In this document: in pieces, positions 681 to 53,992 of the stretch
Position numbering within the stretch: position 1 is the first letter of the stretch
How the letters are laid out: each line of letters begins with the position of its first letter
Assembly (NCBI GenBank): GCA_036785375.1
Contig: JAWMAR010000131.1
Location: 372,001-436,000, forward strand
Source: Leucoraja ocellata
Lineage: Eukaryota
DNA: 64,000 nt
Direction of reading: 5' to 3'
Translations under genes and position numbers: made by a program
The notes under the pieces: generated by a model
Seen by the model: the letters and a program-made list of their open reading frames with translations, nothing else
Databases searched by the model: none
What the model was told of the DNA's origin: nothing

Positions 681-1452
681 ATTTAATAAACAGAATAACA
701 AAACATGTAAGCGGAATGAAACAAAACAAAAAAAAAAAAAAAGTAACATAAGGATATTCGGGCAGATAACTAAAAACCTGGTTATAGAGAAATCTTCTAA
801 GGAACATTTTTATAAAAGAAAAGTGATGTAGACAGGATAGAAATTCAACAAAGCAGTGAAGTTTACAGAAGGAATTGCCAAAGCTTAGGGTCTTGGTCAG
901 TGAAATCATTGCACATTGAATTCTGGGATGATTAACAAACCAGATTACCCAAGTACATATATCAGGAAGGTGACAATGCTGGAAGAGTTTACTAAGGTAG
1001 AATGAGGAAAAGAGTTAAAAGCAAATGTGAATAACTAAAGTTAGGTAGCAACCACCTGGATCCATTGTGGATCGGTGTGTGCATATCAGTTGCGGATAAA
1101 TGGGATTAGAGAAATGGGAAACTTGCATTGGTAAACATTTACCGATACATGAAGAGTGAAGACAGACTGAGCAATATGGAAAAGTTAAGTCTAGACATTG
1201 TAAAGGCTTCTCCAAACTGGAGCGCAATTTGGTTCAAATTTGTTTTTTTAGGATATTCCTGAGGGCATTGGAGTTAGGGTTATGGTTGTGATAAAAGGAA
1301 AGGGGCAAAAAATAGTTTTTTTATAACTATTGGAGGTAATCGTACGTGAGCGTGAAGAGAAACCACAGTTTTTAAAGCTTTTTGTTTCCCATTTGCAAGC
1401 ATTGGCAAAATTGATGGTGCAATTTAGGTGAACTGTTGAGAATTACACTGAA

Positions 1453-1557
1453 GGACACAAAGTACTGGAGTAACTCAGCAGGTCAGGCAGCATATCTGGG
1501 GAACATGGATGGGTGACGTTTTGGATTAGGACCCAGATTTAGGCCGATTGTGTTGAT
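1453..1557 (-). mobile_element. Penelope-derived terminal-repeat fragment
   Basis: ggacacaaagtactggagtaactcagcaggtcaggcagcat..gtgacgtttt matches the repeat flanking the PLE at 20262-21534; ttacactgaa occurs on both sides (1443-1452, 1558-1567). Confidence 0.7.
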
Positions 1558-3522: not shown

Positions 3523-4973
3523 TGTTGATTGTTTGGCTGATTTCATTAATTTGGAATCAAGGTTTTTTTTAATTGCTTACCTCATTGCAAAGTGAGAATC
3601 AGCATGAGCTTTGTGCTCCAGAGTTTTCTTTATTAACCTTGTTGTAAAAATAAGTTATGAAGGAATTACCATTGGTTTGAGCTGAACACCATTTTGAAAT
3701 TGCAACAGTCACATCTTTGGGTATTGCTCGACTGAAAATACAGCCTCTTAGTACTTTAATGTGACATCCAAATCCTTATTTTTCTCCAGTATTGGCTCCC
3801 TTTTATCATATTACTTTATATGGTGTTTCACATTGATTCATATTTCCTCATGCCAAACGTGCTCAATGATTAACATCCATGTTTCAATATTTTTACAATT
3901 TGTGTGTTGAGCACATAATTAATCAACTGTTAATTTATCCTTTCCTTATGTCCGATTCTCATTCTATAGTTACCCTGGTCAATAGTTACTGGTTCGGACA
4001 TCCAATCCTCATCCCTTGTATACTTGTGCACCCAGTCAATACAGCAACTAATGCAACTAATTGACTAACTGCTAGCCTCATTTTGGGCCACCTCATTGTG
4101 ACTAACTGTCTAGTCTGGCGTGTAACTCTACACTTGTTGCTGTCTCCTACCATTAACAACCTCTTAACTCTTTGATTGTTTACTCAATATATTTGTATCG
4201 GATGCACAATGCGACTTTGTCTCATGTTCCTATGATGGTGCATCAGCACCAGAGTCTGAACAACAATATGTGATGAGTGTTTAATTGAGGTGATGCAGAA
4301 TTAATGAAAAGGGGCATTTTGTTTGATCCACAGTTTTAAGACAGTTTGGTGATGCAGTTTTCTCCCTTGTCTTTGATTTGGCCCAACTTTAGTTTGTCCT
4401 TTCTGCAACACACATAAACACAGTGGCCAAAGTAGCATTGTGCCTCCGTGCATAGACCCACAGATCCAAGAAGTCATTTTTGGAAGGCATCAATCCATAT
4501 TTGATGTTACTGATATCTCTTCATCATTAATCAGATGCTGTAGGCACTCGCCATGCTTGTTGTTTATTAACCCTATTCCAGAATCTTCAATCACACAAAT
4601 CATTACCTCCTAGCACTGTCTCTGAGGATGGCTTCTACGCTAACTGTAAGTTCCCATTAAAAAACTCCCATTAGCAAGAATGACACCAATACCACTGGAA
4701 TGATGTCCTGATCATCATCCTATCCAATCAGAATGACATTCCCATTTAGCAAGGTCTATCTCAACTAATGTTCTCATTCCAAATGAACCATTAATGTAAT
4801 TACAGTTTATGGATATGGGAAACGCTAGTCTTATTGTCCATTATCTTGGCTTTTTAGTTAATAACCAATACAAACTCTGAATATACACTGGATTTGATGA
4901 CTCTTGAAGGATTATGGTTTCCATTAGCTTAATCTTTCATTCATTGCATCCTTCCAATCTCCGCCACCAACAT

Positions 4974-5075
4974 AGATAGACATTCTGAAGAAGGGTCCTG
5001 ACCCGAAACGTCACCCATTCCTTCTATCCAGAGATGCTGCCTGCCCCGCTGAGTTACTCCAGCATTTTGTGTCTA
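4974..5075 (+). mobile_element. Penelope-derived mini-element with 14-bp TSD
   Basis: Flanked by tccgccaccaacat (4960-4973) and tccgctaccaacat (5076-5089); contains the full hammerhead core and the pLTR tail. Confidence 0.8.
4985..5013 (+). ncRNA. Minimal type I hammerhead ribozyme motif (short stem III)
   Basis: CTGAAGA-A-GGGTC ct GACCC-GAAA-CG-TC-A: CUGANGA box, stem II, GAAA box and GUC cleavage triplet; stem I is weak in this copy. Confidence 0.65.
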
Positions 5076-5456
5076 TCCGCTACCAACATGCCAGTTGACT
5101 TGTCACCTTGTCATGTTCTAATGACGCCACAGGTTGTCACCCCCTGGTTGATCATTTTTTGCCAACAATTCAATACCTCTTATAGTGTATTTCTACATGT
5201 TATCTAAATAAATAGTTTCCTTCTGACATCTTGCCATTCTGTTCCTACCCATTTCTGCCAAATCTTATGCTCTTTATTACTTAGCTTCTCTGACACCTTT
5301 CTCTGCTCTTGTTTTGTTTCTAATTTTACAACAGCAATTCCTTTTACTAATTTAACATGAATTAATTGTAAATAGCTCCCTTGGCATTATTGTGTTGACC
5401 TATCCAAGCTCATTTTTATGGCCCCCTTGCAGAAAATCTGTTCAAGCCCATGTAAA

Positions 5457-5632
5457 GGGCAGTATGGCGGCGGAGCAGTAGAGCTGCTGCCTTGCAGCGC
5501 GTACCGTGCTAGAGATCTGGTTTTGATCCCGACTATGGGTAAAGTCTGTACGGAATTTGTACATTCTCCACGTGACCGCGTAGGTTTTCGTCGATTTCCT
5601 CCCACACTCCAAAGATGTACAGGTTTGTTGGT
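5457..5632 (+). mobile_element. HE1-like tRNA-derived SINE, 3' truncated
   Basis: tRNA-like head plus V-domain-like core gtacattctccacgtgacc..cctcccacactccaaagatgtacagg shared with ~15 copies in the window. Confidence 0.8.
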
Positions 5633-6125
5633 TTAGTATTTAGGATTGTCAAGTATATGGAGATGTAGTGAAAAGCTTTGATTTACATACTTTCCAATCA
5701 GATCAGATAATACTATACATACATACAAGCAACTCAAACTCAAGTCCAGCTGGGGAAGATACAGGGTGCAGAATATAGTTCTCTCCAATGAAACGCATTA
5801 GTACCCTAGACAAAGTCCAATGTCCTCAATGATGTCGAGGTGAATTGGGCAGTGCCCTAGCTTAAGGAAGATTATTCAGCATCCTGATAACAGAGGGGAC
5901 AAAGCTGTTTCTCAGTCTGGTGTTTATCAGGCTGTTTCTCAGTCTTTCAAGCTTCTGTACCTTTTGCCGAACAGAAACCGGGAGAAGAAAAAAGGGACAA
6001 GTGTAGGTGGAGTCAATGGTGGGAAGTTTGGTCCATGCGATGGACACTGGGCTACATTTCCTACTCTTTGCAATTTCTTGTGGTCTTGGGCAGAACAGTT
6101 CTCAAACCAAGTTGAGAAGCAACAT
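5633..6125 (-). mobile_element. Rex1/Babar-like LINE 3' fragment
   Basis: ORF 5862-6047 ends TRLRNSFVPSVIRMLN, matching the Rex1-type C-terminal motif RxxNSFFPxxIRLLN, followed by 3' UTR. Confidence 0.7.
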
Positions 6126-6200
6126 TTTGTAGAAATAAAGAAGATGAAAAGTAACTCCTAAATGTAACTAGTGCCCGGAATCTTAGTTCCCTTTCTTTTG

Positions 6201-6510
6201 TTTAGTTTATTTTAGTCTAGAGATACAACGCAGAAACAGGCCTCTCAGCCCACCAAGCCCGCGCCGCCCAGCGATCCCTGTACACTAGTACTATCCTACA
6301 CACTAGGGACAATTTGCAGTTCTTACAGGAGCCAATTAACCAATAAACCTCGTACTTCTTTGGAATGTGGGAGGAAACCAGAGCTCCTGGAGAAAACTCA
6401 CACAGTCACAGGGAGTAAATACAAACCCCGTACAGACAGCATCCATAGTCAGGATCAAACCCGGGTCTCCGGTGCTGTAAGGCAGCAACTCTACCACTGT
6501 GCCGCAGTGT
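6201..6510 (-). mobile_element. HE1-like SINE, near full length
   Basis: Reverse complement of the SINE consensus including the (TTTAG)n tail. Confidence 0.85.
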
Positions 6511-7237
6511 GTAATGTTCCATATGGCAGACCTATCTGTTTATGAAGGCTTCAAGTGCTCTATTCAATTTTAACAAGACAAATTGAGAAATGCTTCAAGT
6601 AATGCATTTAATGCTTTTAAACTCAAAATGTCTATTACGACACTTACAAAAAAAACATAAGATATGTGTATTTTAAATTAAATTGCATATTTAGCTACAA
6701 AGATGAACGATGTAATAGTCTATGGGTTGTAATGCTTGGATTTGTTCCAGCTTTCTATGTGTTTGCACTTTGCACGATGAGCCCAACATGGACATTCTAC
6801 CTCATCTGTGACCATCTTGTGAGGTCTTTCAGAGGCTTTTTGTCACATAATCCAGCGCTTGCAAGGTTACCAGTAATGTATGGTAATAAAATGCAGAGCC
6901 CAGAAACTACTGTTCATGTTATTGGTAGACAGTTATTTAATATGCATATATTTCATTTTGTACACCTTTTAACACAGGTATTAAGTATTTAATAGAAGCA
7001 AGTTAACATCAGTAGTTAAAAGATGGGAAAGAGGGATAAGAGGTCACAGATTGTAATGTTCAGTGTGAACTGATGTGTAAAACTGTATTGGAATACTAAC
7101 TTCTCTGGAAAAGGATTTGGTCGTGGATCCAGACTTCTGGCCAACCTTATTTTTAAGCCAGTCGGATGTAGCAGCTCAGACTGATCAATCACAAGCACAT
7201 TGACATTGTTATTGTCGACATAACCAAAATACTTGTG

Positions 7238-7540
7238 TGACACGGTGGTGCAGTGGTTGAGATGCTGCCATGAAGCACTTACATCGCCAGAGACCCGGGT
7301 TCGATCCTGACTACGGGTGCTGTCTGTTTGGAGTTTGTACGTTCTCCCTGTGACCACATGGGTTTATTCCAGGGTCTTCGGTTTCACCCCACACTCCAAA
7401 GACGTACAGGTTTGTAGGTTAATTGGCTTGGTATAAATGTTAATTATCCCTGGTGTGTAAGGGGTGGTGCTAATGTACGGGATCGCTGGTCGGTCCGGAC
7501 TCAATGGGCCGAAGAGCCTGTTTGTGCGCTGTATCTCTCA
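7238..7540 (+). mobile_element. HE1-like SINE, near full length
   Basis: A box ggtggtgcagtgg, B box gggttcgatcc, conserved core and gggccgaagagcctgttt tail. Confidence 0.85.
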
Positions 7541-8225
7541 GCTCTTTTACTCTGCCTCAAAAAATAGCATTAGTAAGTTGTTTTGGCGAGCAGATCAGGC
7601 TGTTAAAACTAATGCGATCGTCAGTTTAGAGGCATGTAATTATAAATTGCTATCACATTCATAGAACAAGAATGATACATCAGAGGTGATCGATGCCCTT
7701 CAAAAGTAGGGACAATCTCGCCACAAAGATAATAAAAGTTTCCAAAACGCATAAACATGCCCTGGATTTTATAATGCTAAAACTATGTTCTGAAAGAAGT
7801 AAAATACATAAATTCAAGAGAGCACACTTGCATGCCAGATCTGCAATGATTATATGACTTGCTAAAACAATGTGCCTTAATGCAGGTTATACCTCTTAAT
7901 GCATTCACAAGGTTATCTGTTTACAACAAGTATGTACATTGTAGCCTCTGTCAATTGAATCCTATGTTAAACGATGTGTTTGTCTGTTAGTTTCTTCCAA
8001 TGATCGCTTGTCAGTCTGTGGCTGTCCTTCTTGCACTTAAAAATGCCTCGTCCATTGTAGAACTTCTCCCATTTTCATTTCCATTGAAAGCAGACAGATT
8101 CAATACTGAGCTGCCAATGGGCAAAGCAAGTTAAATGTCTCAGCGGTTCATTCGGTGGAGCATCTCTTTAGTTTGTCAAGGAAAATAGACTTTTCCTTCT
8201 CATACGGACTGTTCTGGGTGACTTA

Positions 8226-8780
8226 AGGGGCTGTCCCACGGGCGACCTAATTGGTGAGTTTAGAAGAGTTTAAAAAACTAACATGTTGAAGACCTTCTTC
8301 GACTATGTAGAAGACCTCCTTCGACCTCCTTCGACTATGTTGAAGCACAGCTTCGACTAGCTACGACTAGCTACGACTAACTTCAGGAAAATTGGACACC
8401 GAATAGTGGAGAGTGAAGACGACCTCCTTCTATCTCCTTTGACCTCCCTTCGACTATGATGAAGACTATCTACAACTATCTTCGACTATCCTCGATTACC
8501 TACGACTAACATGCTGACCTACTACGACCTACTAAACCTACGAGTAAAAAAAGTATCGATTTTTTTCCATGACAAGCTTTTTTTACTTGCGGGCATTTTT
8601 TAACATATTGAAAAAAACGCCGCAACCTAGCTGAGGTCTTGAGTACGCGGAGACCATTCTCGAGAATGAAGGAGAGTTACGAAGACTTCCTATGACCTCG
8701 TGTCGACCATGCTGCAAGTATGAGTCGAGGGCAAACTCGCCAGAACTCGCGGATTAGGTCGCCCAAGTGGGACAGGCCCT
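8226..8780. mobile_element. PIF/Harbinger-type MITE
   Basis: TIRs AGGGGCTGTCCCAC-GGGCGACCTAAT and ATTAGGTCGCCCAAGTGGGACAGGCCCT, TTA duplicated at 8223-8225 and 8781-8783; interior of degenerate CTTCGAC/CTACGAC repeats. Confidence 0.85.
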
Positions 8781-8796
8781 TTACATTTTTTTCGTG

Positions 8797-9581
8797 GCGA
8801 CTCGAGGAACTGCAGATGCTGCTTTATAAAAAAGACACCAAAGACACGGGCAGCGTATCTGGAGAACGCTGGAGACATTTTAGATCGGGACTCTCCTTCA
8901 GTCTAATTGTAGTGGGGATGATACATGTGGAGGGGTAGAGAGAGGTTTGATTGGCGGATGGATGGACAAAGGCCAAAGATGAAAAGACAAAAATTGTGAG
9001 ATAAGGAGATAAGAATATAAGATGTGCTAATTGTGAAGCCAGTGGAAAGAATATAGGTGGATGGGGCTGGGGGGAGTTGGAAGGGTGGCAATGGGTGCAA
9101 ATCAAGGTGGGGCACAGGGAAGCGGGTGGGGGACAGCACCTCATATTTCACTTGGATAGTTTACAGCCCAAAGGTATGTACATTAAATTCTCTAATTTGA
9201 CTAACTAATCTCTATAAATGAACCTCTTTCTCCCCCCCTGCCCTCCCCCCCCCCCCTCCTCCTCCCTGTGCCCCATTGGGATTTGCACCCATTTCTTCCC
9301 CCCCCCCCCCCTGCCCCCCATCACCTTCCACCTATATTTCTTCATCTGGCATCACAACATGTACCTCGTATATCCTTATCTCCTTATCACACACATTTGT
9401 TCTCATGCCTGGCTTTTGTCAATCAACCTCCTCCCACCTCACCTGTATCCACCTATCACTTGTCAGGTTTTGTCCTGCCCCCACCTTTCTTTCAGCTCTA
9501 CCCCTCACTGCAATCAGTCTGAAGAAAGGCCCCAACCCAAAATGTCCGGCCTGAACCATTGAGTTACTCCCACTCTTTGTG
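8797..9581. mobile_element. Penelope-like element 3' end with inverted terminal copy
   Basis: 8797-9134 is the pLTR on the minus strand; 9135-9581 is the plus-strand ORF end (QHLIFHLDSLQPKGMYIKFSN) plus pLTR; imperfect flanking duplication tacatttttttcgtg / tacaatttttcatg. Confidence 0.75.
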
Positions 9582-11629
9582 TACAATTTTTCATGCTTTT
9601 CTATTCATTTACTTGGATTCAGTTTTTTTAATCTAACAAACCTGTGTATTTGCAGTCATTACTCTAACAATGGGATAACGTTATTGTATTTATAAAGTGA
9701 AAAATATAATGAAAACATGACAAAATTACTAATTAATGTAGATACCTTGAATTTTCTGTCTTAAAACTTATAGTTGTAGATAAATACCCTAACAAAGTCA
9801 TAGAACCTTATTGCATAAAAGGAAGTAATTTGGCATATTGTGTTTACAGCCTTTCCCTCAAAGAGCTATTCACTTAGTTCCATTCCTTTAAACTCTCTTA
9901 TATTGTTTATATTTCAAGTATTTATCCATTTTCTTTATAAACAAGATAATGATATTTTGTTTCCACCGCAGTATTTCATACAATGTTCTTTCTCTGGTCC
10001 ATTAACTGTCCAGAGAAAATGTAGCCAACCTCTCCTGTTCTCCTGTTGTGATGTTGAAATAAGTTAAACATTTCTCCTCAATTTCACCCAACTTTCGATG
10101 ATGGGGTATTAAAGCCAGAATCTACAGCTTACAATTGTTTTTATTTTTTAACCCACATGAAAAAAAATCTTGATATTTAATATGTAATATAATTAGCATG
10201 TAAAATAGGAAAATATGGGTATGAAATGGGGTTGTGTAAAATCTGATAACATATTAAAATTGTATTGTGAAATATTGATATTCCAGCTCTTTACCTGTGT
10301 GGAATATTGAAAGAATACAGTCACTTGCATCAATATAATTGGGTGGAACCAAAGTTACATTCCATACCAATGTAGCACTGATTGCTATTGGAATTACTCC
10401 ATAAAATCATTCAACATATTTTCTTGACATATATTGGACAGCTGATTTGATTTACTTTGAAAGCTAGTTCACTTTGATAATTATCTAATGCAATTTCTCA
10501 TTGTTGTATTAAATAATTGAAGAAGGATTTTGATATGGTGTTACGAAGCTCCATTAAAATAACTAAAAATTCTCTTTCTACTTGCTAACAAAGCATTTTT
10601 ATATCAAGAATATATATGTACAAACCTACACATACTTATTCAATGAGAATTATTTTCCAGCAGAAACAATGGTGGGGTTATTGGTGTTACAATGTTGAAG
10701 CATATATTAAACGGTGAGTTATATCAACTGCATTAGCACAATAAAAATTCCAGATGAGGAGGGTACTACTGAAGTTCCTGCTCCTTGAGTGCAGAATTCA
10801 ACCAACATGGTATCTCGAAGAAAGGATTAGCGTTCAAATATACAGAATGACACAAGGTTTGCTACAGTCTTGTTATGAAGAGCCATGAAACTCATTTGAA
10901 AAGATAACGACTTGTCAACTCCAGTATAGGTAATTTTCTCACAGTGCAATGTCTACATTTTTGAAAACTTAAGCTGCAGATCATTGCAATTGAATGTTTG
11001 CAAGACTAAAATCTAACTCCTCTGAATGTTATTTACTGTTAGAACGAACAAATATCGGAAATTACATGAATGTAAATTGAAATACTCAATTTAATCTTCT
11101 CCTTCTCTCTATGTTGCTTTCTATAGTTAATTTCATATTGAATTAAACTTTCTAACTTACACTTCCTGATTAAAATTTTGAGTTCATTGACAATTATTTA
11201 ATCCAATTACTTAATGAATATCTGATCATTTTTCCTGTCTGTAGTGGACCAACCTTTCTTGAAAAGGGATAATGGAACTTGTAGTTGTTGAAAAGTGAAA
11301 ATCTGCAGGTGCTGGTAATCTGAAATAAGATCAGAGAATACTGAAAATACTCAGCAAGTCAAGCAGTAGCCACTGGAAGACAACTAATGAAGGGTCATGT
11401 AGCAGAAAAATTAACTAGCAGATTGTTGTAATTTTTGCAATGTCCTTTTGATATTTCCTCCAACATGTACCTCGGTCTTCAGCCACCATGATTTGTGCCA
11501 TGTGATAGCAAGAAATTACTGGAAATGACTGAGGGTACTGGATACTATAACTGATGCCGGACCAGACAATATCCCCACTGCCGTATCATAGCAGTATAAT
11601 TACGCTGGAAGTGTCATCAAGGAACAGTT

Positions 11630-12700: not shown

Positions 12701-13186
12701 TAAAACTGAGTCTTTAGTATATTAATATATACTGTCCATGTTATACCCCTGCCTTTTTATATGTGAGCAGCCAAAAAACTAAGAATCTATTTTTGCCCTT
12801 AATAATTTAACATTAAATTAATATCACTAAAGATGCAAAAGGAAATCTATCAACATACAAATTAGAAACAGGTGCCAGGCATTCTGTCCCTCATGCCTAC
12901 TCAGTTATTCAATAAAATTGTAGCGGGTCTGATTTTAACCTCAAACCCGCATTGCTACCTCCTGCCTTTCACCCTTTTGCTTAACAATTATCCATTTACC
13001 ATTACCTTATAAATATTCACCCCCTTTAGGGATGAGAATTCCAAAGAGTCTTATTCTCCTGAGTGAAAATAAAGCAACTCATTGCTATCTTAAACGAGTG
13101 ACCTTATTTTTAAGTAGTGACACCTAGTTCTACAAGAGGAAGCAATTCATCCACATCCACCCTGACAAGACCCTTCAGGATTTTGT

Positions 13187-13343
13187 GCAAGAAAGAACTG
13201 CAGATGCTGGTTTACACTGAAGATGGACACAAAATGCTGGAGTAGCTCAACGGGTCAGGCAGCATCTCTGGATCAGCCTGATAAACGGTCTCAACCCGAA
13301 ACGTCACCTGTTCATTTTCTACAGAGATGCTGCTTGTCCCCCT
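13187..13343. mobile_element. Fold-back Penelope-derived mini-element with 13-bp TSD
   Basis: Minus-strand pLTR tail joined to a plus-strand hammerhead segment; ttcaggattttgt at 13174-13186 and 13344-13356. Confidence 0.8.
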
Positions 13344-14796
13344 TTCAGGATTTTGTACTTTTTGAGTCATTTGTCACTATTAGTAATATCAAAATAAATA
13401 TTACATTTCTGATCTTCTTGGCATGGAGTACCTTTGGATGCAGCGGGCTTACACATTTATTCTACTCTATATCTTTCAGCCACTGTATGTGGCAAGTGGA
13501 AGTCAAGAAAAATAGAATTGTTTTCATATTAATGAAACCTATTACAGCTTTCCACTGCCTTACTCAAAATGGAAGATAACTACTAATACAAAGAAGAAAT
13601 ATTTCAGAGAAACAAAATTGTTTGTGCATTTGAGATAGCAGAGATTAATTCCATTCACCTAACGTCCTATGTCAGTGAATTTCAAGTATGCAGGAATAGA
13701 AAATTTCTGCAACATGTTTACTTATTTTGTGATTGTTCTGCTGAATTGTATAACTTGCTGCATTCTCTGGTGTCCTTCCAGGTTATTAACTGCAGTAAAG
13801 GACTTAGCACTTATATAGGTTGCCACTAAGTATGGCATCAATTTCAATATGTGTTAATGTTTAATATTGACTATTGGTCATTTAATACCTCTTCCTCAGC
13901 AGTCTGCAATGGTTCAACTTTATCTCTATATAACCTATTGATAAAAGTGAAAAAAAAACTCCAGAATGTGAGGCCAGCAGGTTAAGTCTCTAAGAGTTTT
14001 ATCATTCTGTCAAACCAGTCAAGTCCTATGCTTTTGATGTGAGGCATATATATATATTTCATGGCCCAATCACAATTTCACATGTTCAAAGCATATCACA
14101 AATTCCTACAAAGTGCTATCTGGCTTTTTTTTAAATATCCATGTAAAGGTAAGTGTTCAGGATTTGTAGAAATGTGGCTCGCCCCTTCACTGTGACCAAG
14201 TTCAATGGATCAGAAAGGGTTCATTGAAAATCCACTCGAGCACAGCACAGCAACAATATAACCGTAGAATGTAAGTTTTATCACTGGGCCTTCATGGAAG
14301 TAAGGGTTGTAATAATAGTCAATGATTATTCAATAACTTGCATCCATAAAGAAACATGTACAATGTCAAAAGATATCCGAATGTGCTCAGTAACGGCAAA
14401 AGGAAGAAATGAGAATAAAGCCAATCCTTAGAAAAATATTTGGAACAGGATTTGGTCACATGCTCCGGCTCCCATTTCCTCATTAAGTACATGCATTAAA
14501 TTTTAGATATATAATCCCCCCATTTAAAAGATGGATTCAGAATTGTTTAGAAAGGTTTTATGCTTTTGGCTGTTGATATTGCCATTGCAATTTCTGCTGA
14601 ATAGACTGGACAAGGCTTGAATGTTTCACTTATTTTGGTTGTGTTAGGGGGTGTAATATCATCATCATAACGTTGCTACAGGCAAAAGCAAAATTGTATT
14701 TCTTTAATGAACTACAACTTAATTGGAAATGAACAAATAATGTATACCAGCTGCCCATCCAAAGTTCCCAGTCACTTGACTGCCAGGTCCACTACA

Positions 14797-14940
14797 AAGA
14801 CAGACACAAAATGCTGGAGTAACTCAGCGGGACAGGAGGAATGGGTGATGTATCAGGGTGGAGCCCCTTCTTCAGAGTTACTACAACATTTTGTGTCTGT
14901 CTTTGGTTTAAATCAGCATCTGTAATTCCCTCATACACAA
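14797..14940. mobile_element. Fold-back Penelope-derived mini-element with ~10-bp TSD
   Basis: aaagacagacacaaaatgctggagtaactc is inverted as gagttactacaacattttgtgtctgtcttt; flanks gtccactaca (14787-14796) and gtctactaca (14941-14950). Confidence 0.8.
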
Positions 14941-17295
14941 GTCTACTACATATGTGACTGGTCAGTGGTTAACGCATTTTAAGCACACCTGAAACAGTGC
15001 TTTAGTTAACACAGTGAAACATTTTGCCAGCTCAGGGTTTTATCAACGTTAAATAATATACTTTCTAAGAAGATCTACTGGAATATTTTTTCAGTTATTA
15101 CCATCAGCAAATCAAAAAAAGATTCAAACCCTAATTGTAGATGAAATAAACTCTAACATATACAGGAATGTAACTATTACTCTGTGTTTACTTGATGAAC
15201 AAAACAGCCCTGAACAATACAGGGGTGATTGTGAGATGTCTGACAAACCTACCCACATGTACTGTGCTGACATGGAAACTCCATGTTTCTTACATTTATT
15301 CTGATCCCCAAAATGAGAAAGAAAGCTGAGAAACAGCACAACATGCAAGAGAGATTTTAAACATACCTTTTGTTTGGGAAGAGAAAAGGAGGAAAACAGG
15401 GAATGACAGGGAAGGTATGCAGGTTGCAGGTCTGATGTATGCTTACATGGTTGAAGTACATATTGCACGAGGTTAGGGTTTATTTTTAAGTATCCATTGT
15501 AATGTAATTAAATGCAATTGCAGTCATAAACTAATGTTTGAAAAGCTTTATTAATGATCGTAATGTAAAAATGACTCTTGTGTGAATAGAAAATGTAGAA
15601 ATTTAATAGAAAATTATCTCTGCTGGGAAATTTCCCTGCACTGTGCAATCTTTTATTTTGACTAATCTTATTTAGGTTATTTTACTGGGGACAAAATTGG
15701 ACTGGGGTAGTTTTGCGTGATTTGCCCGGTGCCCTGTTAATGCAGTGCTGGTCTCTCATTGTTGTGATTCCTGCAGCCATGAGCATTCTTCATGCTATTG
15801 ATTTCCTGATGACCTAACCGCAGAGCTTAATTCCATCATTGGCTGGCATCAATTTCAGCACTGATTAAAGCCAACCCACTCCTTGAAGGGGAGATGCATT
15901 GTAGCTGAAACCAGTGGGGAAATCACTTTTAACACTTGTTGGAACTGATAGCAGAACATGAGTGAGCATGGATACCCAAATGGGTCTCCACTGTGATCGA
16001 TATGCGCAGCAGCTGAGGTGGGCTGGTGGTTGAGGGAATGATTATAATGACTTAATCCCGACTCCTGGTTCATTGGATTGAATCAATCCACATATAAATG
16101 CATTGGTATTGTTCGTAAAGTGCCAGGTAGTGTTTATACCAAGCAGAATCAACAGTGTAATTGTTAGACTGTTGAGTATGATATAAACTTAGCTGTTACT
16201 GTTGTAATAGATTACTTCCAGTTCCATAAATCATTTCATGCTTAAAAGCAAAGAAAGAAATTGGAAGGGAGTAATTAATTTTCGAGACCTACTACATAAT
16301 TGAGAACATGCTGTCAAATTTGTACGAGTTAATTTAATTTCTCCTTGACTCCCTAAGAATTGTATTGACATGTTTTTAAAAGAGCTTTCTACTACACCTG
16401 GCTGGGGGATCAACTTTTATGTACTTTAATTACTGAAAAGAAATCTCTAAAGAGAGCTATTACAGCCAGGATCCGATTTGACCTGACAAATGAATAAGAA
16501 TTACCCCCAAAAAATCTTACGACAACAAGCTTTAATTGGGGATCTATTGGGAGATGTTTCAAAAAGAAAGATGAATTCTGCATAAAATCATTGCAGTTTG
16601 ATTTTTTTTTAATTCAATTTGATTGCACAATGTCATTTTTATATTCACATAAAAATATGATAGCTGGTTTGGACTTACTGCCATCTTCTCCACTGATATT
16701 TATAGCTAACACTATGACGTTTATAGGGATGGCTGAGTTATATGATAATGCTACGTAGGCTTAATTTTTGATGTATTAAATGCAGGTCATTTTAATCTGA
16801 TCCGGGAACTTTATAATGGTTTTACTCATTAAAAAATATTGTTAATGGAAGTGCTTGTTTATTGTTTAAACTCCCTGAATCATTTATAAGATCTGCATAC
16901 TCAATGGGAAGATGTCGCCCATTCAAGAGAGGTTGTTTTGTTCTATAGAGGGCTTTGAATATACCTAGCAAAAATATGAATAGAGCAAAATCCTATAAGG
17001 TTTATTCTATACAAGGTATGAGCAGAGGTACTGTTTAAAAATAAACCTAACACATATTTGGCCCAAATTACAGATCGCTATGATTTGAACTTCCTTTGAG
17101 GTAATAAATCTAATTTGTACATCGAGCATGTGTGCAAATTAGTTGGAATAGTTGTGAAACAGCATCTATGGATGGACACACCCACTCCCACCAAGAATGA
17201 GAATTACACTGGCTGGTATATAATGGCATGTTGCAGGATAGAGAGTGCACAGATTCTCATATGCAACAGTGGGGATCCTGGTGGAAGAGATAGAG

Positions 17296-18680: not shown

Positions 18681-20261
18681 CTTTTAAGAAAAATTCTTCT
18701 TACATTCACAACAACTCACTTGCACTCTATGGATAATTTACAGTGGCTAATCAACTTACCATCTTCTCTATAGTTTCATGATCTTCTTTGTAGTTCTAAT
18801 GTAAAACAAATAGAGTTTTGCAGATGATTTAGTAAAGAAAGTAGTTTGAAAATCAAGCAAACACTCTAGTGTTTCTGCACTGCTGAATCATTTCTCATTA
18901 CCTTATTTCCCTCAGTTAACCCAGTTCCTAGTTAGGAACTGTACACAACAGTAGCTCTAATACTGATACAATAGTAAATAATTTTGAATGATACTTAGTC
19001 GGAAATTAATAAGCCCTGTCATTTACTGGGCAAATAATACATGAAAGCAAAGATGTAGAGGGTTTTTTGAGAAAACGTATTGAAACATAGTAAAAATGGA
19101 AGAAAAGGCGACTCTAATCCCTGTGCTCTAAATTATGAATTTACTTTTTTTATACCAGAAAATTAATCATGGTTCAGAACTAACATTTCTGAGGCAGTAT
19201 CGCGTTTTACTGTTTTTCCAGAATATCTAGTAATTGAAAATGCAGAAGAATTGAATTTAATATATTCCATGTGTGTGCTCTCCAAATCTATTCTCTGTGG
19301 AGACTTGCAAACAAACACTAGACCACCATTCAGAGATTCAAATCCCCTTAATTCAAGACAGTTTTCTTTCCTGAGAGTCAATAGACTGTCCATACTGCAT
19401 GGGACAGAGGAAATCGTAAAGATGATTATCCTTCACATTACCGCTACTATTCTTCATGAAGAAATGGCACTACATTGAGAGTCACTGCATATAACTTCTG
19501 AACAATGTATTGAGAAATGTTCTTCATGGTCCACAGTCTCTTTCACGTCACAACAGATGATGTCAATGCTGCAGACTGTTTTGACTGGAGCAAATCGTTT
19601 TCCCTTGTCAAGGCAAGGTGATGGCCAATGGTAAAAAAAACAATATAGAGGTCGATGAGGCATTGGAAGTTATTTTGTGGACATTGATCTGTCAAAGACA
19701 TGGACTGAGATGTGGTGCAGAATATTTTTTATAGATTGTACTTTATCTCTGCATTTACATTTCCAATCAGTTCAAGGCAGGTAATTCTTTCTATGAGTGC
19801 AAATGAGACGTAAAGTCTGGATAAGGTTTATCTTCTGATGTTGGTCCAGGCAACTCCACACTCTCGCTCTGCAGCATTTAGGAGAGAGATAAGGTCATCA
19901 AAATGCTCCAGCAGTTCTTTAGGCTTTCTAGAGATCTCGGTAAAGCAATCATACTCAGTGAGACCTCTGGTATGTTAAAACAAATGCAGCTGGAATTAAA
20001 TATATTAGGTAGCTTCTTAAAAACATGTTGTGGAATTTAGCTTCTCAGGATGTGCTGCCTCCCCCTAGCTTCTGATTTTAATCTGCTCCTTTAAGCATTT
20101 CGGAAACTGGGAATTCTTAGTTATTCAAAGGAAAAATGGGCGAAATGTTGGGTTTTGATGAGAGATGGGTTATGAAGGGAAGGTGCGTGTTTGCACCATT
20201 TATGGCTTGGAGATGCAGAGGTTATGGTATGAAGAGGAAATGGGATACAAAAAGGGAAAGG

Positions 20262-21534
20262 AACACAAAATGCAGGAATAACTCAATGGGTCAGGCACCA
20301 TCTCTGGAAAAAATGGATCAGTGACATTTCGGGTCAGGTCCCTTCTTCAGACTGATTGTAGTAAGGAGAGTGGGGGGGGGGACTTAAAGAGAGATAAAAA
20401 CAGGAGAAATCAGGGCCAGCAACAGTTGACCTCAGGCAAGAAGGTTGGCTGATAGGCCAATTGTGGGCTAGAGACAAGTGTGAGCCCAAGAGGGATACAT
20501 AGTTGTCAACTGTGGAGACTTTTACTGGAGGGGGGAGGGTGAACAGGGAGCTGTTGATGGAAGTTACAAAAAAAGTAATATCCAACATTCATACTGCTAG
20601 GGTGTAGGCTACCCGTGAAATATGAGGTGCTGCTCCTCCAATTTGTATGTGGCCTCATTCTAGCAATGCAGGCGGTCCAGAACAGAAAGGCCATTATGGG
20701 AATGGGAAGGGGAGTTAAAGTGGTTGCCAACTGGAAGATCCAGTAGGCCTTGGCGGACCAAACTCATGTGTTCACCGTCAAAACGGTCTACGCTTGGTGT
20801 CACCAATGTACAGGAGCCCACATCGGGAACACCAAATGCAGTAGATGAAGTTAGAGGAGGTATGTGTGTATCTCTGTCTCACCTGGAAGGATTGCTGGGA
20901 CCCCTGTTGGGAGTCAAGGGAGGAGGTATAAGTACAGGTGTTGTATCTCCTGTGGTTGTAGGGAAAAATATCTGGGGAGGGGGTGGTTTGAGTGGGAAGG
21001 GATGTGTGAACCAAGGAGTTGCGGAGGAAGCAGTCTCTAAGCGAGGTGGAGATAGGAAGATATGATTAGTGGTGGGATCTCGTTGGAGGTGATGGAAATG
21101 TCAGAGGATGATATGTTGGATGCAGAGGCTGGTTGGGTGTCAGAAGACCAGAGGAACTCTGTCCTTGTTGTCTCTGGGGATAGAGGGAGTGAGTGTAGAA
21201 CTCTGGGACACAGAAGAGCCATGAGTGATGGAACCATCTATGGCAACTGGGAGGGAAACCAGGTTTTCTAAAGAATGAGGAAATCTTCGATGTATGGAAA
21301 GCCTCTTCTTGGGAGCAGCTGTGGCAGAGACAGAGGAATTGAGAGTCGGGGATAGCATCTTTGCAAGAGGCAGGGTGGGAGGAGGTGTAGCCAAGATAGC
21401 TGTGGGGTTAGTAGGTATGTCCACTAAGTCTAGTCCCTGGTAGACACAAAATGCTGAGTAACTCAGCGGGACAGGCAGCATCTCTGGAGAGAAGTAATGG
21501 GTGACGTTTCAGGTCGAGTCCCTTCTTCAGACTG
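20262..21534 (-). mobile_element. Degenerate 5'-truncated Penelope-like element (RT thumb + GIY-YIG endonuclease) between direct terminal repeats
   Basis: Minus-strand frames give PTNPHSYLGYTSSHPASCKDAIPDSQFL (RT thumb), SSNFIYCIWCSRCGLLYIGDTKRR (GIY-YIG) and KLEEQHLIF (C-terminus); direct ~90-bp repeats at 20262-20354 and 21441-21534. Confidence 0.9.
21502..21530 (-). ncRNA. Minimal hammerhead ribozyme motif in the upstream pLTR
   Basis: Minus strand CTGAAGAAGGGACTCGACCTGAAACGTCA: catalytic boxes intact, stem II imperfect. Confidence 0.55.
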
Positions 21535-22860
21535 GTCTCTTTGTTTAGTCCCTGTATTGTTTTATATTTTCTAATTTCCTTTGATAGGTTTGAGATACAA
21601 TATTGCTCCTTTGACCCAAGAGGTAAGAATAGACCTCCCCTCCCCACACTGGGGTCTACTCTCCAAATCCCAAACTTCTCATACGTGATCCTCATAATTT
21701 ATCCTTTGGTCTTTAACCTCACGGCTAAGGATTTCTTTGGTGCATAACTGAAAGTTTTGTCTATTTGGAATGTATCCAACTTCCAGTTAGCTGCTACTTC
21801 CCTCCATGTTTTGTGTGAGAGATGGACAGAGATGCTACAGATGTGGTGCAGTGGTTAAAATCACTCTTGTTTCATTATACCCACGTTGGGATGGATAGTT
21901 CCTAACTTCATAGTGGACAACTATGTCCAATCTGAATATCAGAAGGAAAAGCTTCTCATACTTGTATAAAGTGCAGTCTTCTGAAAGGCTGCTCCTTGTG
22001 TACAGGAATTCATCATCATTGTTGATGAACTAGAATCGATGGATCGTGCACATGGCTGGAGAAAATTGATTTACTTACTGCTCCTCCGTAATGTTCCAGT
22101 TTAGTGTGTGTCCCAGTTAATTGCACTCAGCTGCAAGATTTGCCTGGCCTTAATAAATTCCCTTTATGGAATTCAAAAGAGAAACAATCCCTCAGTACGA
22201 AATGGCTAGTGTGAAAAACAGGTGTAATGTTATGCATAAGCATAAAAAAACATCTATAATAAACATAATTATACCAGGCATATCACACCAGTGTAGACAG
22301 AAGATCACTACTGGCACGAAGGTTAAAGCACATGATTGCACTTGTACAGCAATACCACTAATATGCCCACAGCTATACAGTACCTGTTCAGAGAATATTT
22401 GATGCAGATTCACGGTGATGATAGTGAATTTTTTTTTCTCCCATTGATGTCCCTCCTATTAATGAGGACAGAATTGACCAAACGTAAGCAGTGATATAAT
22501 TTATTGCCTTCAATCGAACAAAACCGTTTCAGTGTTGTACTTTGTCGTTCTTTTAAATACGCAATTAAAATGCTGGATGCGTCGCTATTTTAATGAGATT
22601 ATGTTTGAATTGGTCTCATCTTCCATTTTGCAACCAAATCCATCATTGCGCGGTTTTAGGGATTAGGAAAGAGAAGACAACTGGCATGTAAAGTAATTGT
22701 ACAGAAATCGGGAGATTGAACCTCATCAGGTTAAACATGACTGGGGAAGAGAAGGGGTGGGGAGGGCAGAGGTCGGGGGGTGTGAGAGGTGGGGGGGGAG
22801 TCATATTTTGTGCCAATGTTGCAGATTTCTGTTCTGGTTCAATTTTTACCAATTACAATG

Positions 22861-22882
22861 TCCATCTTAATTTATGTTTCAG
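22861..22882 (+). promoter_or_regulatory. 3' splice acceptor of the TSHZ2 intron upstream of the main exon
   Basis: tccatcttaatttatgtttcAG immediately before the conserved YVPEE start of teashirt main exons; phase-1 junction as in the TSHZ family. Confidence 0.85.
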
Positions 22883-25800
22883 TTTATGTCCCCGAAGAAG
22901 ACTTAAAGACGGGAGAACTGAGAGAAGGAGAAGATGGCAGCCCTTCTGCAGAGGAGTTACAAGGCAATGGTTACATGTGCACGGAGGAAGAGGAGGAGGA
23001 GGAGGAAGACAGCAAAGGCAGCTACAGTTACCAGAATTCCCCAATTAGTGCAATGTCCAACCAAGATGCAGAGTGCGAGTCGCACATAAGTGATACCAGT
23101 GATAGGTTGGCTGATTTTAAAAGTATTTCTTCCCGGGACGGGCAAGAAAAGGAAGAGCAGTCGAATGGAGAGACGAAGAATGGCCAACAGAACAGTTTGG
23201 GGGCAATGAGAGCCGTTTATGCTAGCTTTCTCTCCGATTCGTATTGGTCAAGTCTAGGCTTTGACCTCAAACAATCAAAGGCTGAAAGGACGAGCTGCAA
23301 AAGCAGCAATGAGAGCACCAAAAGTAGCTTTGATTGGCACCAAGATGCATTATCCAAAACATTTCAACAGACCTCCTCTTGCAGACCCATGCCGAAACCA
23401 AATCTTTTCAGTTCGGTGCAGTTGTACAGGCAAAATAACAAGTTGTTTGGGACTGTTTTCACAGGCGCCAGTAGGTTTCGCTGCAAAGAATGCAGTGCAG
23501 CATATGACACTTTGGTAGAACTAACCGTGCACATGAATGACACAGGCCATTACCAAGACAATAACCACAAAAAAAAATTGGACCACAACACCAGTTGGAC
23601 AAAGTCACGGAAACGAGCCTTGCAGGATATGGATGGTATGCATGATGCCCAGAAAGTGTTAAAGTGCATGTACTGTGGTCATTCTTTTGAGTCCCTTCAA
23701 GATTTGAGCGTTCATATGATTAAAACAAAACATTACCAGAAAGTGCCTCTGAAGGAACCAATGCCACCAATCGGATCAAAGTTAGTCCCTCCCACTAAAA
23801 AGCGGGCCCAGCATGAAGTCAATCAGCCTTGTTCACCGGATTCAACCACTGGAGTTGCAGGGACATTCACAGGCGAAGCACACAAGAATTCAAACCCCTA
23901 CGTGTCGTCTAACAATCGGTACGGTTATCAAAATGGCGCCAGCTACACCTGGCAATTTGAAGCCTGCAAGTCGCAAATTCTGAAGTGCATGGAATGCGGA
24001 AGCTCTCATGATACCCTGCAGCAACTCACAGCCCACATGATGGTGACGGGGCACTTCCTTAAGGTAACAAACTCTGCATCGAAAAAGGGAAAGCAGATTG
24101 TTTTTGACCCTTTGGCCATGGACAAAGCCCAGTCCATCACAGAAGCACCGTCAAACGAGATCCAGCCTCTGGCACCAGTCAGCAAATTGCCGCCAGATTC
24201 CTTAACTCCACCCGCGGTTGAAGATAACAAAAGTGAAGAAAAGCAAGAGATAACAGAGAACGTGGAGAAATCACCTCAAGACAAAGACGATTGCAAGGGG
24301 GACAATCCAGAGAAGATGTTTGGCTCCACGCTTCAATATCAATACATAAGAGAAGAAGATCTGGAGGAGAGCTCGAAGGGAGGTGGTGACATTCTCAAGT
24401 CACTTGAAAACACTGTTGCTTCAGCCATCAACAAAGCCCAAACTGGGAGTCCCAGCTGGAGTGCATATCCCAGCATCCATGCTGCCTACCAGCTTCCAGG
24501 AATCATTAAGCCTATGCAACTTGGTACTCAGATATTGCAAGTTAAGCCAAACCTGAAACCTATAGCTCCAAAAGTCAGGTATTTCTCTGTAATTACAAGC
24601 AGCCAAAACCAAGGGCTTCAGTCCAACAATGACCAAATCAAGGAGGAACCAATTAGCCCGGTTCACGAACAGATTTCATCCAAGCTGGAAGAAAGCAATA
24701 TCGAGAAAAAGGATCCAAAGTTAAACCTCCAGTCTGCGCTGCTTTTGTCATGTAAAAAGGAAAGTGAGAGCCCAATAAAGTCAGAGACCCTCACTGATCT
24801 CCCAAAGGCAGACTCGCCTTGTTTGAAAGAAGCTGAAGAAGTGAAGCAAATCTTCAAGAACGAGCCTGTAAAGAGTGAAGCAGGATCTCCAAATTTTTCT
24901 TTAACCAATGGATGTTCTGGACTAACAGTCATCACAGATCACCCATCTGAACACCTTTCAGTCAGCCCACTTAGTGCACTGCAGTCGATAATGAATACTC
25001 ACCTTGGCAAAGCGGCCAAGCCCCTGACCTCAAACCTAGACCCTGTAACGATGCTTTGTAGACTCAATAAGAGCCTGCTGGAGAAATCAGCTTCACCGCC
25101 AAGTTTAATAAAGCCATCCAATATTGCTAATAGTTATTACTACGAAAGCAGTGATCAGCCAATAGATCTCACCAAATCGAAGAGTGGCAAGGCCATCCAC
25201 TCAAACGCTATCAAACCCTTTACTTCGTTACCTTCCAAACACGTGCTATCTGATATTGCTGATATGGTAAAGGTCCTCCCAAAAGGTACGACACCAAAAC
25301 CTTCTACCTCATCAAAGATGTCAGCGGAAAGGTTAGAGACCGACGTGAGGAGCTTTGAAGATGTGTCAATGGATTTTTTACCTGTTCAGAAACGAAAAGG
25401 TAGGCAGTCAAACTGGAATCCACAACATCTTCTTATTCTGCAGGCCCAATTTGCTGCCAGTCTGTGGCAAACAGGAGAAGGCAAATATTTATTATCTGAT
25501 CTAGGTCCACAAGACCGAATGCATATTTCAAAGTTTACTGGACTCACCATGACCACCATAAGTCACTGGCTTGCCAATGTAAAATATCAATTGAGAAAGA
25601 CAGGTGGAACGAAGTTCCTTAAGAACTTAGATACAGGGCATCCAATTTTCTACTGCAATGATTGTGCCTCCCAGTTTAGGACTCCTTCCAGTTATATTGG
25701 TCATTTGGAATTCCATTTGGGCTTCACTATGAAAGATATGGCAAAGATTTCTGTACAGCATGCAAGAGGGGAGCAAGAAGTTTCAAAGGTGTCATCTGAG

Positions 25801-25971
25801 AAGTCAGTGAGACCAACTGTAGCAGATGAGGACACAGGCAGCAAGTTCCAGTGTAATCTGTGCAAACGAACTTTTGCTAGCAAGCATGCAGTAAAACTGC
25901 ATCTCAGCAAAACACATGGGAAATCACCAGAGAATCATTCGCAGTATGTAACTGAAATAGAGGAAGAGTAG
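22883..25971 (+). CDS. TSHZ2: Main coding exon of teashirt zinc finger homeobox 2 (N-terminal exon 1 lies outside the window)
   Basis: Long open frame with three teashirt C2H2 fingers (CKEC..HMNDTGH, CMYC..HMIKTKH, CMEC..HMMVTGH), the CtBP motif PIDLT (25159-25173), an atypical homeodomain RKGRQSNWNPQHLLILQAQF..ISHWLANVKYQL and two C-terminal fingers. FDWHQDALSK, FEACKSQ, SKGGGDILK and SWSAYPS match TSHZ2 as I recall it rather than TSHZ1/3. The exon starts after tttatgtttcAG, phase 1, reading (V)YVPEEDLK. Confidence 0.93.
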
Positions 25972-32013: not shown

Positions 32014-32172
32014 AACACAAGGAACTGCAGGTCTGAATTATTTTAAAAAAAATGTTGGAGTAAGTCAGCGGGTCAGGCAGCATCTCTGAAGAACATGAAA
32101 CGGTGACGTTTTGAGTCGGGACACTTCTTCAGACGACGGTGACGTTTCAGGACAACGACCCGAAACGTCACC
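32014..32172. mobile_element. Fold-back Penelope-derived mini-element with perfect 14-bp TSD
   Basis: tagtttcagttgta at 32000-32013 and 32173-32186; minus-strand pLTR followed by a re-started and then inverted hammerhead segment. Confidence 0.85.
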
Positions 32173-32580
32173 TAGTTTCAGTTGTAGGCGGTTTTCATCC
32201 AATAAATTTCCCCGTATCTCATTTGTGGTCTTTGCATTTTTTAGACCTTTTCTTGTGCCCAATGTGATACAGTAAATCTTATATTTTATCTGTCGTGGCC
32301 CATTCAATATACAATGTACGTTTTTCCTTCGATTCTCTCCATTCCTTAGACAGGTTAAATGACAGAAAGTCTTATGGGTTGGGTGAATATATTTATTCTA
32401 TCCTCTGTTATCTCAATTAAAATGTACAGTTCGCTGTTGCATGGCAGGCATCGGGGCATTGTCTTAATTCTGAAGGATTGGATCTGGCAGTTGTATTCGG
32501 GTTCAGACAGTATCTAAAACCCATAATGACAACAAGCAGCACTTCTGGCACCAAGTCTCAGGATTCCCTTATTCACTCTC

Positions 32581-44100: not shown

Positions 44101-45064
44101 TCCCTGTTCCTTCTCTGTATTTCATTCTGTGTTTCTTCCACCTCCACAGGTCGTTTAACTACAATATTGTATGTGCTTATTTTCTCCCTGCTCTTGCTGT
44201 AATTATTTCTCCCTGTCTCACTCTGGCTGTTTCCTCTCTGTCTTACTTCAATAATAGAGTATACTGGCTGCACAGTCACAAACATAACCATAATTTGGAC
44301 ATTCAACAATATCAGACATCAACTAAACTACGCATTTTCTCGGTGTGCTGTGCGATTTTGTCTGAGACAATGTGTGCTTCTGCTAATGTGCTGTTTTACC
44401 TTCACCTGATTTCACAGCATCTTCCCTTCAGCAAGCTCCACCAACACAGATGCAGAGGTTTTACATTTCACCTTGCCTAACCTTGCAGATGTTACAGCGC
44501 TCCTTTGTGTAGCAATTAACCCAGATGTGGTAAACTACTTATTGGAACATATTAGGATTTAATGGTTGTGCGTTCAATTCAAACAGGAATTGTGAATACA
44601 TATGAAATGCAAGATCAGAGTCGCGTAACCAAAACAGCCACAATAATCATCTGCAAATGAACCACCAGAAAGAGCTATTGGGAATAGAAATCAGATTGAG
44701 CACACATAATCTTCGCACAAACAGTCCATCAAGTGTTCACTTCTCCTTGTTCTCAGTTGATTACAAATAACTCCCATTGGGCTGATCTTCTTCATATCGA
44801 GTCCACACACAAGTTTAGAAATTGTTCAGCCAGAGCTGAACACACTACTCGGTATCTGCATACAATGGTGTCTGTCCTGTCGCTTCTCGCGCGCGGTGGT
44901 GGAATGATTGGTGGAAACAGGGCCGCAACGTGAACGCTCTTTCCATGACCCTATTGGGCTGATGTCAGATGATCACTCAGGTGAATTTCCTAATATGCAT
45001 AAATTTTGAATTATGAGTACAATTTTCCTCACTTTGACAACAGCTTGTGCAATAGTAATTTTTT

Positions 45065-47809: not shown

Positions 47810-48027
47810 TGCTTTCTCCCTCCTTCTACTCCCCTTTCCAGCTCTCCCACAGCCCTCTGTCTCCGCCTCTTCCTTTCTTCTTCCCGCCTACCCAACCCCC
47901 ACATCAGTCTGAAGAAGGGTATCGACCCAAAACGTCACCTATTCCTTCGCTCCATAGATGCTGCCTCACTTGCTGAGTTTCTCCAGCATTTTTGTCTACC
48001 TTCGATTTTTCCAGCATCTGCAGTTTT
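47810..48027 (+). mobile_element. Penelope-derived terminal repeat with decayed hammerhead
   Basis: cagtctgaagaagggtatcgacccaaaacgtcacc..gatgctgcc..gctgagtttctccagcatttttgtctacc. Confidence 0.75.
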
Positions 48028-48377
48028 TAAACTTACAATGTATGAGAGGATTCATTTATTTTCGTATCTGCAAATATTTCCAAATATTTTCTTTCAGGGC
48101 AAGGCTAATATAATACTTCATACCATTCTTTAATTAAACACAGGCATGTTTAAATAATTGACTCAGAATCTTAAAATATTATATTTTGAGTTAATCTAGT
48201 TTGCGTGCATGTCATTTTCAGAAGTCAATTAGTTAGAAGACATTATGGCTATTCTGTTCATACCAGCTTCCATTCTTAATGTAGACACAGCAGACTGCAG
48301 ATAGTAGAATCTACTCCTCCTTCAATTCCTTTGTTTTTCTTGCCCTCCCTCTTCTACATTCCCTTCAGATTTCTTGG

Positions 48378-53593: not shown

Positions 53594-53992
53594 ATGTTGT
53601 TCTTTATCACCTTGAGATATGGTCCAAATTTTAATCAAAGATCAATTGTATTTACAATCAATTAGCTTCTCCTGTCACTCTTGTGAAATCAGTCCTGGTG
53701 TTTTCTGTTGGAGACACTCCACAGGTGCTAAATGTAGTCGAAGTTACAGCAATCCAGGCACTGTGTGGCTCCCGTTGTTTGGGAGCAGTCAGATTGCTTG
53801 TGAGAAGAGCTCTTCGAGCCAGGTCCTTGAAAGCTTCAAAATTGACTCATTTGTAGCAGTCTTTCCTTTGTCTTTCTGACAGAGTTTTCAGCCCAAAATG
53901 TCAACATTGTTCCTCTTTCCACAGTTGCTGCCTGAGCTGTTGAATGTTTACAGCATTTTTCTGCTTTGATTTCAGACTTCCATTATCTGCAG

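Follow-up and report, generated by a model that had tools for sequence, protein, structure and literature searches.

Does a hammerhead motif carried by one of the commonest short repeats in a stretch of skate DNA act on the transcript in which it lies, or is it what remains of the element that brought it there? The motif was noticed in the initial annotation of 64,000 nucleotides of Leucoraja ocellata DNA (contig JAWMAR010000131.1, positions 372,001 to 436,000; hereafter, the window), which took it to be a minimal type I ribozyme of the Penelope-like kind, sense to the TSHZ2 pre-mRNA. With a probability of roughly 0.85, we favor a reading in which the focal copy is a terminal repeat of a Penelope-like element (PLE) that was inserted in 5′-truncated form and carries a minimal type I hammerhead, likely idle in this copy.

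The focal motif and its insertion

The hammerhead boxes claimed for window positions 4985–5013 are present, and the observation is real: the letters there read CTGAAGA-A-GGGT(CCTG)ACCC-GAAA-CG-TC-A. The CUGANGA box (C3–A9) and an extra A preceding stem II occupy 4985–4992 on the plus strand, a layout matching the metazoan minimal-hammerhead (min-HHR) consensus. Stem II and its CCUG loop follow at 4993–5004 (plus strand), and the GAAA box, the palindromic ACGU that replaces helix III and the GUC triplet lie at 5005–5012 (plus strand), as judged from the sequence, our descriptor and the accessible portion of the published description (PMC4209133). The predicted cut, at a UH cleavage site as in other min-HHRs, falls after 5012. 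Stem III had been described as reduced to the palindrome ACGT, and this helix III stub, another min-HHR feature, is indeed seen at 5008–5011. Stem II had been drawn with 5 bp; the hairpin is present, but because a fifth pair would close a 2-nucleotide loop it has 4 bp and a 4-nucleotide loop. It opens with G10.1–C11.1 after the extra nucleotide, again as in min-HHRs, and its predicted occupancy is low, with alternative pairings predicted to outcompete it when the flanks are included. The remark that stem I spans only about 2 bp is true of the family (2 bp in 22 of 29 intact copies) but not of the focal copy, in which G2.2 is T and stem I is therefore a single pair, its sole pairing-capable base being the U at 4984; the class range is 2–5 bp.

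We sampled 864 kb, comprising the window and 80 stretches of 10 kb taken without selection, 10 of which adjoin the window, with a descriptor for the minimal hammerhead, which 36 copies passed in the sample and none in each of five shuffles. The focal copy was the only one in the window to pass. Rfam covariance models returned no hammerhead match in the window, and none for two family loci or for two well-formed min-HHRs from metagenomes; because even the latter went unmatched, Rfam appears blind to the min-HHR class. By layout and position, the focal motif is a minimal type I hammerhead of a PLE terminal repeat (pLTR).

Elsewhere in the window, at 44919–44952 on the minus strand, Rfam gave a weak match to CPEB3, an HDV-like ribozyme (25.5 bits, below the gathering score of 35). 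A second genomic copy, in locus L158 at about 808–945, is similar from the first G of the predicted P1 onward (~150 nucleotides, 86%), and the pair may belong to another repeat family that carries an HDV-like ribozyme at its 5′ end.

The focal copy is a 92-bp 5′-truncated insertion flanked by 14-bp target-site duplications on the plus strand, at 4960–4973 (with one mismatch to the 3′ copy) and 5076–5089. At 4974–4982, on the minus strand, 9 bp match the element's own 3′ end in reverse complement; we infer that they are left over from the inverted arm that PLE insertions typically have. Downstream of the motif, 5013–5075 (plus strand) holds the rest of the pLTR, part of the PLE 5′ UTR, which in loci L204 and L206 runs on into the N terminus of the ORF. 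The 3′ end at 5075 coincides with the first of the two preferred 3′ ends of the family, whose distribution is bimodal. Compared with the sample majority, the copy differs in 6 of 97 columns, including the change of G2.2 to T. Contigs of two related species enter the element from both flanks, so the insertion, which these species have in common, is older than those splits.

The host gene is a teashirt (TSHZ) gene whose large coding exon 2 lies at 22882–25971 on the plus strand, a PDB match confirming the family. Exon 1 lies on the plus strand at G000:C131:191,791, 180 kb upstream of the window, and the two exons have an in-frame donor and acceptor. This predicted splice, placed from genomic sequence, supports a location of the focal copy in sense orientation within a predicted 203-kb first intron. 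Of the earlier claim, the sense orientation in a teashirt intron is supported; the paralog label TSHZ2, which came from a sequence motif, we keep as an assumption. Teashirt loci are doubled in the assembly (G000:C131 and C269; C31:293003 and C31:1347860), the focal insertion being present in both assembly copies of its locus, which are 98% identical there. The assembly thus probably holds both haplotypes in part, with inflated copy counts.

A high-copy family of Penelope-like terminal repeats

An HMM built from 30 genomic copies detected 20 family fragments in the window and 438 in the 864-kb sample, compared with none in the reversed 864-kb control. The initial annotation had counted about 14 copies; all 13 other places that it named are covered by family matches, although those at 1515 and 32156 lack the CUGA box. 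The first of these belongs to an HMM-detected fragment at 1443–1534 (minus strand) and the second to a minus-strand copy with a short inverted fragment at 32019–32176, also detected by the HMM. Inverted arrangements recur at 8843–9588, a decayed head-to-head pair (8843–8907 minus, 9513–9588 plus) enclosing a 3′ UTR and a remnant of a GIY-YIG C terminus; at 13182–13357, a head-to-head pair with a decayed core; and at 14784–14942, an inverted pair, likewise with a decayed core. An Rfam match to MIR1858 at 9056–9333 is not a microRNA; it reflects the inverted repeat between the head-to-head copies at 8843–9588. A longer 5′-truncated copy at 20261–20950 (minus strand, upper bound approximate) retains a GIY-YIG remnant, 3′ UTR, decayed hammerhead and tail, and a solo copy at 21422–21536 (minus strand) has a 12-bp target-site duplication and a broken stem II. 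The remaining copies lie at 47903–48038 (plus strand; shared 3′ UTR upstream, G12 mutated), 53892–54089 (two decayed fragments, with a GIY-YIG remnant upstream of the minus-strand copy), 61432–61503 (minus strand, decayed) and 63701–63837 (minus strand, decayed, with a long tail).

The proposals of very high copy number and CpG-type decay were both borne out. CpG columns are the most eroded, with identities of 0.71–0.79 compared with 0.93–0.98 for the core. The 3.44-Gb assembly contains 22,145 exact pattern matches (control, 0), and one 32-letter pattern has 58,825 exact matches. Extrapolation from the sample, in which 36 of 227 core-covering copies (~1 in 6) were intact, gives about 1–1.7 million fragments, 0.9 million core-covering copies and about 1e5–1.4e5 descriptor-intact copies, with haploid numbers perhaps lower by up to half because the locus is doubled in the assembly. 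The family accounts for about 4.7% of the DNA sampled.

Several lines of evidence tie the repeat to PLEs. Many copies are preceded by the C terminus of a GIY-YIG endonuclease and a pyrimidine-rich 3′ UTR, and a GIY-YIG domain lies on the same strand within 700 nucleotides upstream in 34 of 253 core copies, as opposed to downstream in 3 of 253. A stepwise upstream walk through genomic copies reached locus L206, a decayed partial tandem that contains, in order, a GIY-YIG remnant, 3′ UTR, hammerhead, tail, ATG, RT-like frames and a second GIY-YIG domain. Its GIY-YIG domain scores above the Pfam cut-off (PF01541, E 3.7e-5); the RT-like frames resemble an atlas RVT_1 cluster (0.93), although the Pfam RVT_1 match on the decayed frame is not significant (E 0.17). 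The partial-tandem pLTR is evident from the repetition of 1817–2074 at 5813–6070 with 89.5% identity, and the first ATG in frame with the N terminus comes ~145 nucleotides after CUGA. RT followed by a C-terminal GIY-YIG domain, in one reading direction and in frames broken by stops and shifts, is found in both L206 and L061, and a C-X4-CxxC linker precedes GIY-YIG in L007, L013 and L061. None of the loci examined showed an intact ORF. We also considered L061 as a full-length element and rejected it, because the upstream hammerhead (at 879), 3 kb away from the ORF, belongs to a different insertion and not to the element's own pLTR.

From the linker and the order GIY-YIG, 3′ UTR, hammerhead, tail, ATG and RT, we conclude on sequence grounds that the repeat is the pLTR of an endonuclease-bearing (EN+) PLE, so the initial annotation was right to see a minimal type I hammerhead of PLE type and a family of very high copy number, the linkage to both GIY-YIG and RT having been shown. 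A CX2-5CxxC-type linker marks Neptune and Nematis (Craig et al., 2021; PMC8557442, accessible portion), and the linker motif, which is the only basis for assignment and is shared by Nematis, points to a Neptune type. As described in the same portion, Neptune-type elements resemble this one in having RT then a C-terminal GIY-YIG domain, a C-X4-CxxC linker, a partial tandem pLTR, an inverted 5′-truncated arm and an optional 30–40 bp tail. Two further arrangements were observed. In L175–L203, mostly small contigs, a decayed, LINE-interrupted PLE recurs together with its flanks at 92–99% identity, as a recently amplified larger repeat, and L148 holds tandem repeats of a pLTR-derived unit whose first letters are the GAAA box (GAAAC) and which has no CUGA box.

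The hammerhead itself closely resembles the metazoan PLE min-HHRs of Cervera and De la Peña (2014; PMC4209133, accessible portion), which have the same CUGANGA box, extra nucleotide before stem II, G10.1–C11.1 pair, GAAA-CG-UC without a helix III loop and pLTR location, and are mostly dispersed singles from truncated elements. With 2 bp in stem I and 4 bp in stem II, the family stands at the short end of their table, and the portion of their alignment examined holds no chondrichthyan row. In anole Poseidon PAc (Frangieh et al., 2024; PMC11167929, accessible portion), the hammerhead likewise lies at the pLTR–ORF junction, two internal RT start sites define the tail, and no RNA-seq ends are reported at the cut. 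That element belongs to another clade, and its ORF starts within the hammerhead, as opposed to ~145 nucleotides past CUGA in L206.

Conservation, folding and cleavage

In predicted folds, stem II mostly fails to form. The median predicted probability of stem II is 0.00 in the family and 0.0001 for the focal copy in context, compared with 0.83 in 85 metagenome min-HHRs, a comparison to be read knowing that nearest-neighbor folding cannot model the hammerhead core and that the metagenome set has AT-rich flanks. Stem I reaches at least 3 bp in 53 of those 85, compared with 2 bp in 22 of 29 intact family copies, and no extension of stem I by distal pairing was seen in the predicted folds. The tail was considered as the cause of misfolding and rejected: with the tail shuffled, stem II still did not form (18 of 216 above 0.5).

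Covariation in stem II, a check suggested in the initial annotation, was not found: among five cluster majority lines there were no two-sided changes in stem II or stem I, only changes to G-U, and every stem change kept a pair. Six sample copies with C2.1–G1.1 had hinted at compensation in stem I, a candidate that we discarded because C2.1 occurs genome-wide in 1,619 copies, compared with 58,825 for U2.1, and is mostly followed by A (61 A, 36 G and 3 T at position 1.1 among the first 100 listed of the 1,619, counted by eye). Across 98 unrelated metagenome min-HHRs, covariation is strong in both stems, evidence for the motif class but not for this family. The scan of metagenomes (L241–L361) yielded 124 matches to the minimal-hammerhead pattern, most with paired, covarying stems and probably from animal host DNA. 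Core conservation, also suggested as a check, gave a split answer. The core is invariant in all five majority lines, among which many tail columns differ, but individual copies keep it barely better than the tail (0.956 vs 0.935; 1510/1580 vs 3915/4189 positions in 161 rows, p 0.002, with a row selection that favors the core).

Nor did RNA ends mark the cut. In three RNA runs with 8,891–35,584 family reads each, no place showed many molecule starts or ends, including after GUC. These runs come from related species, cover 1–6% of reads, are poly(A)- or oligo-dT-based and contain no read on the unique flanks, and therefore do not test the focal copy. The same runs contain a joint of L206 position 2281, the base before the predicted cut, to 2519–2521 on the opposite strand (51, 52 and 36 reads). 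The joint is absent from the DNA contigs of the one species examined, and may represent one conserved expressed insertion. In genomic DNA, a cleavage footprint found no support: the 128 inverted-arm junctions at the first base past the cut share a 2-nucleotide microhomology, and microhomology controls gave 2,272 (nearer) and 83 (farther). Copy starts number 351 at the cut, 287 at −2 and 135 at +2, a rough 1.3–2.3-fold excess with approximate normalization, which counts in favor of cleavage.

An unlikely alternative is that the motif is a hammerhead here only through its ancestry, having lost function even in the master elements of this lineage, and is kept as a promoter, palindrome or RT-binding sequence. 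The 2-bp stem I, the competing folds, the lack of two-sided covariation and the lack of a footprint at the cut all fit this idea, as does the proliferation of PLE clades without hammerheads (PMC8557442, accessible portion). Against it, all core letters are invariant in five of five majority lines while many tail columns differ, stem changes keep pairs, and a 2-bp helix I exists in published min-HHRs (PMC4209133, accessible portion). It differs from our preferred reading only in what the masters did. The accessible accounts describe no in vitro cleavage by single min-HHRs (PMC4209133), none by eight of nine Xenopus dimers, and an anole PLE hammerhead that needs protein and whose main template is uncut RNA (PMC11167929). 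In the reading that we prefer, the hammerhead of the master elements would probably have cut only with help from the PLE protein or a tandem partner, and inserted copies would then decay near-neutrally.

Short copies and the host transcript

How the short stubs arose can be read from their ends. The 149 anchored copies in 1.054 Mb comprise 71 solo copies, 46 with a head-to-head inverted arm, 29 with the shared UTR and 3 in tandem. Most stubs have a sharp 5′ end, beginning 0–5 nucleotides ahead of CUGA: in 57 solo copies (those left after removal of 14 with pyrimidine-rich upstream sequence), family letters occur at frequencies of 0.88, 0.79 and 0.72 at −1, −2 and −3 and 0.46 at −4 and −5, and reach background from −6. 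Target-site duplications of 9–19 bp flank 15 of the 57, compared with a mean of 0.5 for shuffled pairings. At the other end, 45 of the 149 copies stop at 90–99 nucleotides and 49 at 115–134, with modes about 30–35 nucleotides apart. The family thus has both the inverted 5′-truncated arm and the optional 30–40 bp tail of PLEs. We propose that RT starts inside the RNA ~90 or 125 nucleotides downstream of the motif, as in the anole PLE, and halts within a few bases upstream of CUGA, on uncut RNA, which would produce stubs of 95–135 bp.

The stop just before CUGA could be the 5′ end of the RNA, that is, the transcription start, the cause that we prefer, at slightly less than even odds. The letters just before CUGA fit the initiator consensus. 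A start at −1 to −5 would explain why stem I is no longer than 2–3 bp. There is a precedent in the internal promoter of Drosophila virilis Penelope (PMC2377424, accessible portion). Fold-back at the palindrome TCAG-T-CTGA could explain the pile-up of 5′ ends in part at most: the arm reaches into CUGAAGA in 18 of 46 inverted copies (some pairs being counted from both arms), but is centered exactly on the palindrome in only 2 of 46. We do not favor a splice acceptor at these letters, given that no spliced joint is among the best-supported joints listed on L206 and that solo copies have no common upstream exon.

It is also conceivable, but improbable, that the short copies, instead of being truncated PLEs, form an independent non-autonomous element resembling a SINE or retrozyme, which has its own master genes and is mobilized by PLEs. 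Sharp ends on both sides, target-site duplications and the 71 of 149 anchored copies without shared upstream sequence are what such an element would show. Identical tail variants, however, occur in long copies with the 3′ UTR and GIY-YIG, the flanks of solo copies are mutually unrelated, few copies (3 of 149, or 28 of 253 by a looser rule) stand in tandem, the arrangement that marks non-LTR retrozymes, and the sole tandem array seen, L148, has no CUGA box. In the accessible portion of Li et al. (2026; bioRxiv 10.64898/2026.07.22.740005), non-LTR retrozymes share the pLTR origin and the type I hammerhead and are reported in one chondrichthyan. They form tandem units each with a hammerhead and are intron-depleted in Xenopus, whereas the skate copies stand alone or head-to-head, and many lie in the intron. 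The retrozyme hallmark of head-to-tail units with complete hammerheads is not what we found, with 3 of 149 copies in tandem and the focal copy solo; the family is not a non-LTR retrozyme. Our literature searches listed no dedicated account of chondrichthyan PLE hammerheads beyond that one species, and the supplements of that paper may list this family.

With the short copies read as truncated PLEs, the question of the host transcript returns. The implied function in TSHZ pre-mRNA was not upheld. We consider it very unlikely that the focal copy and similar intact sense copies cut this pre-mRNA in vivo (alone, in trans or with a PLE protein) and so affect host RNA processing. The focal copy is, it is true, the only descriptor-intact one in the window, its insertion is fixed across both assembly copies of the locus and also occurs in two related species, and the hammerhead of the anole PLE is documented to cleave with the aid of protein (PMC11167929, accessible portion). 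However, its stem I is 1 bp and its stem II has a probability of 0.0001 in context, and because 36 of 227 core-covering copies (~1 in 6) are intact anyway, one intact copy among the 12 in the window is expected. No orientation bias or RNA-end pile-up was seen either: intron 1 holds 48 sense and 44 antisense family fragments, and its intact copies (6 sense, 3 antisense), nine in this one intron, show neither depletion nor enrichment by orientation. On the preferred reading, the loss of one of two stem I pairs and the lack of a tandem partner would leave rare or no cutting of the host pre-mRNA.

PLE hammerheads and their dispersed single copies have been published before, and the focal case matters little as it stands. 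What sets this genome apart is scale: the hammerhead-motif copies here far outnumber those reported for other vertebrates, the extrapolated ~1e5 descriptor-intact copies comparing with 4,000–9,000 in coelacanth and Xenopus (PMC4209133, accessible portion), as counted with a different descriptor. In their sharp ends, the stubs preserve a large body of evidence on how PLEs are reverse transcribed, and it agrees with the in vitro finding that uncut RNA serves as the template. As a speculation to which we attach hardly any weight, the ~100,000 intact hammerheads, many of them sense in introns, might be folded off by default and switched on by a PLE protein that binds the tail. If that were true, pre-mRNAs across the genome, among them that of the teashirt gene, would be cut whenever PLE expression surged.
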